DNA from: an uncultured delta proteobacterium
Lineage (GTDB): Bacteria > Desulfobacterota > Desulfobacteria > Desulfobacterales > JAHEIW01
DNA length: 64,000 bases
Assembly: GCA_963706575.1 (NCBI GenBank)
Contig: CAVPNL010000012.1
Coordinates: 64,001 to 128,000 of the forward strand
Direction of reading: 5' to 3'
The notes below the pieces were generated by a model that had not been told where the DNA came from, ran no database searches, and saw only the letters and a program-made list of their open reading frames with translations. The translations under genes and the position numbers were made by a program. This document shows, piece by piece, positions 60,180-63,641 of this stretch (positions within the stretch are counted from its first letter, which is position 1; every line of letters begins with the position of its first letter).

Positions 60180-60764
60180 ATGAAAAAATTAATGCTACCC
60201 ATCATTTTGTTGATGATGATATATGCGTGCACCACTTTCGACACCATAGACCACAATGCCTCTGTCAGCGATTCCGATCAGGCAATTAAACGGGTTGCCG
60301 TGGTTGACTTTGATTTTGCCAGACCCGAAAGAGGTAGAACCGATCGGGGAAGAATTGTCAGACCCATGAATGCCGGATCGCTTATGGCAGATATTTTCAC
60401 AGAGCATTTGCTGGAATCCGGTCTATATGAGGTTGTCGAAAGAAAGAAGATCGTCCGGTTGTTGAGAGATTTTGAGATTGATACCGGCGACCTTTTTGCC
60501 GCCGATCATATGAAAAAATTACAAGACGTCCTGAATGTGGACGGATTAATCGTCGGGGTGGTCATGGAATATGGTGATTGGCGCGGAACAATCAATTGGG
60601 GTGGCGTGGTCGGATTTAGCGCCAGGCTGGTTGAAGTCGACTCCGGATCGCTGATATGGGCAACCAGCGCCAACCGGAATATGGCCATGACCAATTCCAG
60701 TGTGGTCGCTCATGCGGCATCGCAGGACGCCCTCAAAGATCTTTTAACCCAGCTTGGCAAATGA
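60180..60764 (+). CDS. Lipoprotein, CsgG/GNA1162-like
   Basis: Lipobox IYAC; VAVVDF, YEVVER, VDGLIVG.V.EY, ARLVEV.SG.LIW. Confidence 0.75.
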   Translation: MKKLMLPIILLMMIYACTTFDTIDHNASVSDSDQAIKRVAVVDFDFARPERGRTDRGRIVRPMNAGSLMADIFTEHLLESGLYEVVERKKIVRLLRDFEIDTGDLFAADHMKKLQDVLNVDGLIVGVVMEYGDWRGTINWGGVVGFSARLVEVDSGSLIWATSANRNMAMTNSSVVAHAASQDALKDLLTQLGK

Positions 60765-61792: not shown

Positions 61793-62875
61793 ATGTTCGA
61801 AGTCGATACCGTTGCCCGTCAGACCCTCAACAACTGCGACATTAGTGATGCCCAGCATGCCGGACTGTATTCCACCTGCGGTCTGGCCCTGCGACTGCGG
61901 GATCTTTATAAGTGGGAACACCACCTGAATCCCTGGGAAGAAAAAGATTCATCTGAAATACTGGATTGGATTGGTGAAAAGGAAGCGCTCTGGGAAAAAC
62001 TGGCAGATGCAAAATACACCGACCTATCGATCGAGGGTAAACGCTACGACCCCTTTGACACACCCGGAATCAATGCGGCACTGGAGCCCCACGGCCTTTT
62101 CTACGGAGCCGGGTATGCCTTCCGTTTAAAACCGACTTTTTTCCTGGCCGAGATCGAAAATAAAGCGCAGAGCAATGGTTACACCGTTTATACCCTCGGG
62201 CACGAATTGGCCCGTGACCTGCTTACCTTGCCGGCGCTTTCGCAGGACCAGACGATTCTGCTGCGAACCGATTCCGCGAGGCTGTATTTGTGGGATCAGA
62301 TGGCATACATAAAAAAATCAGGCCGTGCGGCACTGCAATTTACCCTTGAACACTTCGGAATGAAAAACCAGCAACCTGAAGTCTTGCAGCAGCATCTACC
62401 CCAAATTCTGGCCGTCCAAAAGGACAACTACATATATCATGAGATCGGAGAACTCAGCGATTCTACGTTTAATCCGACAATCTGGCGCGAATTAATTGCC
62501 GCCTTTCCGCATTCACCCGTAGAGCTGCTCGCCAGAGGTCTCAAAGACCTGCTGGCGGACACCAGCCCAAAAGGAACGCTGCCCTATCTGATAAAAACCC
62601 GCAAAACGGCCGCTCTGGGACTGTATGCCGCTTTTTTGGATGGAATGCCAGCGGAACTTTTCCCCGAATTGAGAGACGCGTTTAATCACTTTACCAAAAC
62701 CCGCAATTGGCGTATGATTAAAGAAGCGGCTGCCGAAGGCTATCGCCGTGCCACGAATTATACCTCTGAGATGGTTCACCTTTTTCAGACGGCTAACAAA
62801 AAGCAGCAGATGCAGTGGGCCAAAGATGAAATCGAGAAACGCCTGCTGGATAAAATCAAAAGAAGGGATATTTGA
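61793..62875 (+). CDS. Conserved hypothetical protein (Sfum_1244-like family)
   Basis: NCDISDA.HAG.YS.CGL.LRLRDLYKWE, YGAGY...KPTFFL, ELARDL, HEIGE, R..KDLLAD; family name from memory. Confidence 0.7.
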   Translation: MFEVDTVARQTLNNCDISDAQHAGLYSTCGLALRLRDLYKWEHHLNPWEEKDSSEILDWIGEKEALWEKLADAKYTDLSIEGKRYDPFDTPGINAALEPHGLFYGAGYAFRLKPTFFLAEIENKAQSNGYTVYTLGHELARDLLTLPALSQDQTILLRTDSARLYLWDQMAYIKKSGRAALQFTLEHFGMKNQQPEVLQQHLPQILAVQKDNYIYHEIGELSDSTFNPTIWRELIAAFPHSPVELLARGLKDLLADTSPKGTLPYLIKTRKTAALGLYAAFLDGMPAELFPELRDAFNHFTKTRNWRMIKEAAAEGYRRATNYTSEMVHLFQTANKKQQMQWAKDEIEKRLLDKIKRRDI

Positions 62876-62900
62876 GGCTCATAAAACCGGGAGAGGTTGC

Positions 62901-63641
62901 ATGAACTACGACGCTGAATTCTGTCAGCAGATTCGGGTAAGTGAAGAAGACAAGCGTCAATGCCTGGCGCTGATTTCTAAAATCCTATTTTTGGCCACCA
63001 ATGCGCGCAATTACGGTTTGCTGTCACTGGGCCAAGAAGCCGAAGAAAGCACTTCATTTCTGCTGGGCAAGGGACTTCAGCTGGCAATGGACGGGGTCAA
63101 AAGCCATACAGCCAGAACGATACTGGAGCTTTATATCTTTACCGGGGATTACACGGGCAAGGATTTGCTGGGACGCTGCATCATCCTGGAAGGGGTAATG
63201 GGCATCCTGGAAGGCATGCATCCGAAGCTTCTCAAAGAGCTTCTGCTCTCATTCCTTGGTGAATCCGGTCACAGCATGTACAAAGAAGAATTTGAAGCCA
63301 GGGAAAAGGAAAAACTGGAATCCTATCTTCAGCAAATTGAAGAAAAACCCGCCGCATCCGATTCATCCGCCAAACTGGGCAACGTTATCGCCCGCCTCAA
63401 CGGCAAGGCCATTAAACAATTTTTGCAGATCATCAATATCGAAGACCTGGCAAAGGCCATAAAAGATATGGATGGCAAAGTGCAAATAAAACTGTTCAAC
63501 CTGCTGCCGGAAAGAGGCGCATCTCTGCTGCTGGAATCCGTTGAACAGATGGATTCGATTGGGCCGGGTGAAATCCTTGAGGCCCAGAATAAGGTGGTGG
63601 CAATTATATCCGAGCTGAAAGAGCAGGGGCGGATCGGTTGA
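62901..63641 (+). CDS. Soluble fusion of MotA-like cytoplasmic segments and a FliG C-terminal domain
   Basis: GGAGAGG RBS, ATG 62901; ARNYGLLSL..FLLGKGLQLAMDG and IILEGV.GI..G.HPKLL.E.L.SFL (MotA-like); DLAKAIK..K.F..L.ER.A.LL.E..E.M..I.EAQ.K.V.II..L...G.I (FliG_C). Confidence 0.7.
   Translation: MNYDAEFCQQIRVSEEDKRQCLALISKILFLATNARNYGLLSLGQEAEESTSFLLGKGLQLAMDGVKSHTARTILELYIFTGDYTGKDLLGRCIILEGVMGILEGMHPKLLKELLLSFLGESGHSMYKEEFEAREKEKLESYLQQIEEKPAASDSSAKLGNVIARLNGKAIKQFLQIINIEDLAKAIKDMDGKVQIKLFNLLPERGASLLLESVEQMDSIGPGEILEAQNKVVAIISELKEQGRIG

Follow-up and report, generated by a model that had tools for sequence, protein, structure and literature searches.

A soluble protein combining the cytoplasmic domain of MotA with the torque subdomain of FliG in an uncultured delta proteobacterium

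When the bacterial flagellum turns, the foot of the stator protein MotA and the tip of the rotor protein FliG are the surfaces that are normally in contact. A gene from an uncultured delta proteobacterium, located at positions 62901..63641 on the forward strand of a window of 64,000 nucleotides, raises the question of why a bacterium would place both surfaces on a single chain of 246 residues (P0001), and whether such a protein acts on the motor from which its parts are known. A preliminary description had seen in it a membrane-free, single-chain mimic of the stator-rotor interface with partly degenerate torque charges. Here we define the gene product from the list of open reading frames, profile matches, an AlphaFold2 model and its relatives, and weigh the functions it may serve.

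Domain organization and predicted fold

Our analysis confirms that the protein is small and soluble, contains no membrane helices and consists of MotA's cytoplasmic domain followed by the C-terminal torque subdomain of FliG. In the N-terminal half, residues 13-81 match five NCBIfam models of MotA, MotP and PomA with E-values between 3.5e-12 and 6.2e-8, while PF01618 gave no match to the protein at E 1. In a phmmer comparison with PDB sequences, C. sporogenes MotA (6ysf, 8ucs) is matched in two pieces, with residues 22-81 corresponding to MotA 78-137 and residues 85-127 to MotA 214-256, and about 75 MotA residues including the second membrane hairpin are thus replaced by a few residues. In the C-terminal half, the Pfam FliG_C model matches residues 163-245 (E 5.8e-13, 49.5 bits, cut-off 23.3), and the match to the FliG model TIGR00207 spans only model positions 244-326 of 338 with 38.5 bits compared to a cut-off of 226.7. 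Profiles for either half therefore return the family initially named for it, and the MotA-like loop is indeed joined directly to a MotA-like C-terminal helix.

The chain, whose segments are all given on the forward strand, starts with a family-specific extension (residues 1-21, 62901..62963), which stands in place of TM1-TM2 of MotA, carries a C-S-x-x-E-K motif conserved in alignment A1 and lies mostly outside the MotA matches that begin at residues 13-22. It is followed by the helices of the MotA cytoplasmic loop (residues 22-81, 62964..63143), in which profiles and structural offsets assign R36 as the retained equivalent of R90 in E. coli and G44 as the position of the lost E98, with D64 also kept. 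A short turn (residues 82-90, 63144..63170), delimited by the two-piece MotA match and conserved at 90% or more at G86, L89 and L90 in alignment A1, is found where MotA has TM3-TM4 and leads into the MotA C-terminal cytoplasmic helices (residues 91-127, 63171..63281), which correspond to MotA 214-256. A linker made up of a long helix and a loop (residues 128-156, 63282..63368; model helix 121-146), weakly conserved by column counts, connects to the helical C-terminal subdomain of FliG (residues 157-246, 63369..63638), which covers Pfam model positions 24-106 of 108 and superposes on 1lkv 237-324 and 8umd 234-322. Within this subdomain, the model helix, the offset to 8umd_B and conservation define an equivalent of the torque helix (residues 204-216, 63510..63548), where R205 and E212 are kept as counterparts of R281 and D288, and D289 is lost to S213. 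The FliG portion comprises only the subdomain after ARM_C, and the parts that bind FliF and FliM and that mediate ring stacking are missing.

The AlphaFold2 model, calculated from an alignment of 94 rows, is all helical with a pLDDT of 94.3 and a pTM of 0.75. Residues 16-132 superpose on C. jejuni MotA 70-255 (Z 15.2, rmsd 2.2, 111 aligned), which takes in both cytoplasmic segments with the short turn replacing the membrane hairpin, and residues 158-246 superpose on T. maritima FliG 237-324 (Z 14.7, rmsd 1.0, 88 aligned). In a search of 48,161 chains, all ten rows with Z of at least 8 are MotA/PomA or FliG (Z 12.7-15.2) and the best row that is neither reaches Z 5.8, and the predicted structure thus matches both halves to their motor counterparts. 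The highest 19-residue Kyte-Doolittle mean is 1.21, compared to 2.05-2.77 in six canonical MotA proteins, and none of 93 family rows reaches 1.9, in line with the absence of TM helices noted at the outset. Without these helices, and hence without a MotB channel, the protein cannot conduct ions, and it cannot polymerise into the C-ring since ARM_C, FliG_M and FliG_N are missing. By the defining features tested, it is neither a MotA nor a FliG.

Genomic context, selection and relatives

A purine-rich run resembling a ribosome binding site (62889..62896, forward strand), recognized by inspection, is located 4 nt 5' of the ATG. The upstream gene (61793..62875, forward strand), a member of the Sfum_1244/DUF6866 family to which no function is assigned, ends 25 nt before this ATG, and the two genes are probably co-transcribed. 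Its stable position upstream of the fusion holds only within the genus, and on the basis of this synteny it would be a candidate partner at most. The neighbours of the fusion gene, which besides the DUF6866 gene include a convergent DUF4197 gene, a lipid kinase and a nitroreductase, are syntenic in the genus and none is flagellar. A gene for a CsgG-like lipoprotein (window 60180-60764) overlaps that of the YegS-type lipid kinase. On the contig that holds the window (C12), tblastn with 19 flagellar proteins from the cluster of the same genome on contig C3 gave no match at E 1e-5, which agrees with the initial remark that flagellar genes are absent nearby. There is also no motB match on C12, leaving the fusion gene without an adjoining cognate motB. 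Motifs resembling sigma-54 or sigma-28 promoters, searched with consensus patterns, were not found upstream of the fusion, the DUF6866 gene or a paralogue located elsewhere in the genome (44% identity, G000:C15:355180-355929). The paralogue is preceded by an extended -10 box, conserved in all six aligned loci, and by an AT-rich box conserved in the genus. Contigs from sediment RNA libraries (four runs) cover the fusion ORF piecewise, mostly at less than 95% identity, along with its neighbours, although this coverage is no proof of expression because the material may originate from DNA.

Close relatives number at least 120 among the matches listed, with 71-94% identity; 118 of these 120 are 245-247 residues long or within a few residues of it, and those that are named belong to the Desulfobacterales. 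The gene is under purifying selection, with dN/dS values of 0.10-0.27 towards eight orthologues. One of these eight (L002) contains two internal stops, and internal stops are also found in the orthologue G548.

Host flagellum and co-occurrence

The host genome is flagellated, with a cluster on contig C3 that includes a full fliG, and the lack of flagellar neighbours is therefore no argument against a link to the motor. The motA of this cluster (G000:C3:250728-251511) is split by a single-base gap, probably a sequencing error since it is intact in relatives, and fliH also appears split. A second, more distant motA/motB pair is located outside the cluster (G000:C6:51955-53581).

The fusion is carried by 20 of the 24 genomes of the host family, ten of which contain two or three copies, and by 7 of 251 genomes in a sample of the order. 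In a sample of the phylum (301 genomes), the host's own genome stands alone among the 150 listed of 438 matches, and a search of the 301 phylum and 301 class genomes, with 150 of the 438 phylum matches listed, yielded contiguous TM-less MotA domains in the host family only. The co-occurrence with flagella, suggested as a check in the preliminary description, holds in all 21 carrier genomes tested: 18 contain fliG, and the other three, all fragmented, have flhA above the cut-off. This association is weak, however, because these carriers represent two lineages only, one family and one single genome. In the order sample, fliG is present in 141 of the 251 genomes, 134 of which lack the fusion, and none of the 110 genomes without fliG carries it. 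Identity of the FliG half is 25% to FliG of the host and at most 43% to other FliG proteins (98 canonical rows), and the half therefore neither derives from the host's fliG nor owes any fit to the host motor to common descent. We infer that the fusion arrived by transfer.

Conservation of contact residues

Residue equivalences were derived from structural offsets (56 to 6ysf, 76 to 8umd), by which R36 and G44 correspond to R90 and E98 of E. coli MotA, and K188, R205, E212, S213 and G221 to K264, R281, D288, D289 and R297 of FliG. Of these FliG residues, R281 and D288 crosslink to MotA and K264, D289 and R297 do not (10.1101/2021.01.07.425829). In 8UCS, the named pairs are those of MotA R89/R93 with FliG E292 and of E100 with R285 (10.64898/2026.09.09.750262). 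The three charges on the MotA side correspond to T33, N37 and G44 in P0001 and are all absent.

In the close clade (46 non-redundant of 121 sequences), a basic residue at 205 and an acidic residue at 212 are kept in all 46 members, as is the charge class of R36, D64 and K109, whereas E98 is lost throughout with an invariant G44. Position 37 is mostly Asn, and the equivalent of D289 is acidic in a single member. A different pattern is seen in the divergent set of 125 rows, which retain R/K at 36 in 107 cases, E/D at 44 in 114, D/E at 64 in 103, R/K at 205 in 86, E/D at 212 in 89 and E/D at 213 in 74, with the equivalent of R297 mostly gone (kept in 28 of 125). The degenerate motifs quoted at first, GLLSLG and MDSIGPGEI, are thus present as stated, but the degeneracy is selective and clade-specific: MotA E98 and FliG D289 and R297 are lost, while the equivalents of R90, R281 and D288 are kept. 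This retention is supportive rather than decisive, because about a quarter of the polar positions in the clade are equally conserved. From the structural offset and the surrounding motif, D64 and K109 would correspond to Asp117 and Arg235 in Borrelia, which are named as FliG contacts (10.64898/2026.10.14.759253).

Two cross-domain charge pairs are co-retained above most others (64-205, top 1.5%, and 36-213, top 3.3%, of 3380 pairs), while 44-205, 37-212 and 36-212 show no co-retention. Mean-field DCA (296 rows, effective 133) recovers plausible pairs within the domains and, across them, 17-163, 13-190, 64-205 and 44-203. The top cross-domain scores (z 5.7-6.0) are at the level of 24 neighbour-swap controls (5.0-7.5), which were run in a reduced alphabet, and in that alphabet the interface pairs vanish.

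The wider family

Among 1.84 billion representatives searched, 930 match at E 0.001, a figure that may include canonical MotA or FliG. Of the best 150 of these, 118 contain both domains, 14 a MotA-like domain alone (some of them maybe fragments) and one a pair of MotA-like domains, with the other 17 being partial. One layout, a MotA domain followed by the FliG tip, has about 245 residues, and a longer one of about 340 has additional sequence and terminates in a near-canonical FliG. Tandem arrangements occur in the same best 150, with three MotA repeats followed by FliG in two proteins and two MotA repeats in one. For one three-repeat member that ends in FliG_C (P0260), the model (pLDDT 81, pTM 0.51, 56-row alignment) shows folded domains with no confident packing between them. 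An AraC head is present on 20 of 54 proteins scanned, a set chosen for odd length, and the full AraC-MotA-FliG layout is found in 46 of 120 AraC-profile matches listed, including Wukongibacter baidiensis, Paenibacillus kobensis and Clostridia; many GyrI-type fusions are also among these matches. One family protein has a HicB head. Look-alikes in the atlas are mostly from Bacillota and Spirochaetota. In a weak tree of the FliG half (88 columns, 8 of 64 branches starred), 4 of 41 fusion rows are placed with canonical FliG proteins, a hint that fusion may have happened more than once, though a single origin may equally apply.

Members also occur on mobile elements. Three viral contigs encode a TM-less MotA domain, either as full fusion or on its own (L057:3003-3743; L058:4998-5345; L061:3920-4303), and in one of them the full fusion directly follows terminase and portal-like genes. 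The L061 record holds a second, frameshifted copy, and on a viral contig of 543 kb, a gene for full-length FliG lies amid phage-like genes (L056:4353-5369). Viral pattern matches on L059, L178 and L181 were rejected as chance. No GenBank phage matched one divergent family member that was searched, and no plasmid matched P0001. Four matches are located on plasmid pTS2 of Treponema saccharophilum, where a same-strand array of small ORFs (L055:1982-14112) includes several such domains, a PARG-like gene and LRR proteins. One MotA domain of this array is fused to a weakly beta-clamp-like N-terminus (Pfam E 0.008), and an apparent likeness of pTS2 ORFs to FtsZ was rejected as Pfam gave no support. 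In appearance, the array is a collection of mimics of host-protein fragments. A FliM-N-like motif, which occurs once in the six frames of the host genome (in FliM itself) and in one of 194 family proteins, is found twice, in two ORFs, within 16 kb of the pTS2 MotA copies. In a metagenome scan of 80 loci, a MotA-like domain was detected in one only; on the contig concerned, a TM-less motA of 225 residues directly follows fliG and carries a soluble insert at the position of the membrane hairpin (L112:785-1462). The family is real and wide, apparently undescribed and built from known motor parts.

Functional interpretation

We tentatively favour, at somewhat less than even probability, the prediction that the fusion is a soluble, unpowered copy of the stator-rotor contact that acts on the host motor by mimicry. 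It may serve as a putative decoy that slows or uncouples the motor. In such a mechanism, the free FliG tip with its retained equivalents of R281 and D288 would dock into the cleft that lies between a pair of MotA subunits in real stators and keep these stators off the rotor, resulting in a brake or a clutch. That isolated FliG_C can occupy this cleft is indicated by an engineered MotA1-262-FliG239-333 fusion (8UCS), in which FliG_C docks between adjacent MotA domains and only there (PMC11302681). As FliG_C sits between two MotA domains, one chain cannot rebuild the interface alone, and an interface formed by the fusion would need an oligomer, a tandem repeat or a stator of the host. The initial idea of a single-chain mimic thus has the right anatomy, but the native contact is not 1:1. 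The MotA-like half might oligomerise, or it might cap the FliG tip and thereby hold the protein in an auto-inhibited form. Where family members retain E98, this half may in addition mask FliG within the C-ring. Here, with E98 and the arginine that follows R90 both missing from the clade, the MotA-like face would be weaker, and the protein would be mainly a decoy that binds stators.

Counted in favour of mimicry are the folds and the missing parts, the kept contact charges, the flagellated carriers together with the lack of the fusion in genomes without fliG, the fliG-adjacent TM-less motA, the FliM-N-like motifs near the pTS2 copies and the precedent of the Borrelia protein FapA. Counted against it are the restriction of carriers to two lineages, the many fliG-bearing genomes of the order without the fusion, the lack of flagellar linkage and of sigma-54- or sigma-28-like motifs by consensus patterns, with the paralogue having an extended -10 box instead, the low identity of the FliG tip to host FliG and the absence of the 8UCS charges on the MotA side. 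The AraC fusions, which are likewise counted against motor mimicry, point to a sensing role.

The close and main rival is a self-contained module, in which the halves would bind across subunits, with two MotA domains gripping one FliG tip, to form an oligomer or switch reused outside the motor, for example as an effector or dimerisation domain of AraC proteins. We regard this as a genuine possibility, though one that falls short of probable. The frequent presence of both domains together in many layouts would be expected from such pairing, as would the weak hint of repeated fusion, the co-retention of 64-205 and 36-213 and the missing linkage to flagellar genes, but 44-205, 37-212 and 36-212 are not co-retained and the charges on the FliG side persist in the clade even though E98 is gone. 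N-terminal AraC heads are readily fused to many domains, as is also seen from the GyrI-type fusions among our matches, which diminishes the weight of the AraC layouts for such a module. The tandem MotA repeats would fit the 2:1 grip described for the engineered fusion (PMC11302681). Conversely, MotA-only genes, which need an outside partner, exist on viral contigs and the Treponema plasmid, and all 21 carriers tested are flagellated.

Two further readings appear improbable. In the first, the fusion would act as a sponge whose two surfaces titrate c-di-GMP brakes and clutches of the YcgR, MotI, EpsE and FapA types, so that motility is protected rather than braked. This is conceivable because in vitro YcgR binds FliG as well as the cytoplasmic domain of MotA in isolation (PMC10140304), which are exactly the pieces that the fusion displays. 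However, the host genome (92% complete) gave no match to PF12945, the N-terminal domain of YcgR/MotI-type proteins, for which the control matched B. subtilis and T. maritima, and conservation falls on the torque charges themselves. In the second, to which we likewise assign little probability, the protein would aid assembly by holding new stator units or FliG ready, or by spacing stators at the motor. The anatomy and charge retention invoked for mimicry would serve it equally, and the TM-less motA adjoining fliG on one metagenome contig is in accord with it, as is the finding on FapA of Borrelia, a clutch that masks the same MotA face and whose loss lowers motility, so that masking proteins can be supportive (10.64898/2026.10.14.759253). 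Such a role is at odds with the absence of the fusion from most flagellated genomes of the order, with its location outside the flagellar cluster and with its presence on viral contigs. Finally, a decayed remnant or assembly artefact without function, to which the internal stops of two orthologues and at least one single-base indel elsewhere in the assembly (in motA) might point, is largely refuted and very improbable in view of the low dN/dS, the near-full-length relatives across many data sets, the retention in most genomes of the family, in ten of them in two or three copies, and the confidently predicted fold.

Returning to mimicry, a more doubtful extension would make the membrane-free contact copies of bacteria, plasmids and some phages a new class of motor regulators in the form of stator-uncoupling decoys, together with motor-state sensors in the form of AraC proteins that signal the supply of free motor parts to the transcription machinery. 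Should the fusion act on the motor, it would be a brake assembled from pieces of the motor itself, which sets it apart from every brake described, and its phage-borne versions would mean that viruses control the motility of their hosts. Irrespective of its function, it offers a natural, soluble and, by prediction, well-folded stand-in for a MotA-FliG contact that has so far been captured via an engineered membrane fusion, and charge-complete members could make the torque step easy to study by binding assays, charge swaps and structure determination.

Relation to known systems

Our literature search, confined to sources other than subscription papers and bioRxiv supplements, turned up no account of a naturally occurring TM-less MotA or MotA-FliG fusion. 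The only prior trace of the family that we found is the NCBIfam model NF047717, built on LIC10244 of Leptospira, whose positions 8-250 of 252 are matched by residues 9-244 of P0001 (E 2.8e-22). With 79.3 bits compared to a cut-off of 475, the protein is a distant relative and not a member by NCBI definition, and 92 of the 94 rows of alignment A1 likewise match below the cut-off. LIC10244 itself is recorded as encoding a hypothetical protein to which no domain is assigned, is regulated by PerRA and PerRB and, in implanted chambers, reaches about 42,000 reads per sample, with 6.6-fold higher levels in the wild type compared to the perRA/B mutant (PMC8638967). A strongly expressed gene regulated by host conditions thus gains a domain assignment.

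With MotA and PomA (PF01618; 6ykm, 6ysf, 8ucs), the fusion shares the cytoplasmic fold, R90 and the loop motifs, but it lacks all four TM helices, the MotB channel, rotation and an adjoining motB, has lost E98 in this clade and is fused to FliG. With FliG (TIGR00207, PF01706; 1lkv, 1qc7, 8umd), it shares the fold of the torque subdomain and the equivalents of K264, R281 and D288, whereas it lacks FliG_N, FliG_M and ARM_C, and hence binding to FliF and FliM and ring stacking, as well as D289 and R297. The brakes and clutches YcgR and Borrelia FapA act on the MotA-FliG contact, which is the site proposed for the fusion, as reportedly do MotI and EpsE. The folds of these proteins (PilZ, glycosyltransferase-like and beta-solenoid) are unrelated to that of the fusion, and none of them is described as a copy of a motor part. 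A counterpart in design is the engineered 8UCS fusion, which combines the same parts in the same order with a nearly identical FliG fragment (PMC11302681). That construct is man-made, retains the TM helices and MotB and forms a pentamer in the membrane, whereas the natural protein described here is soluble.
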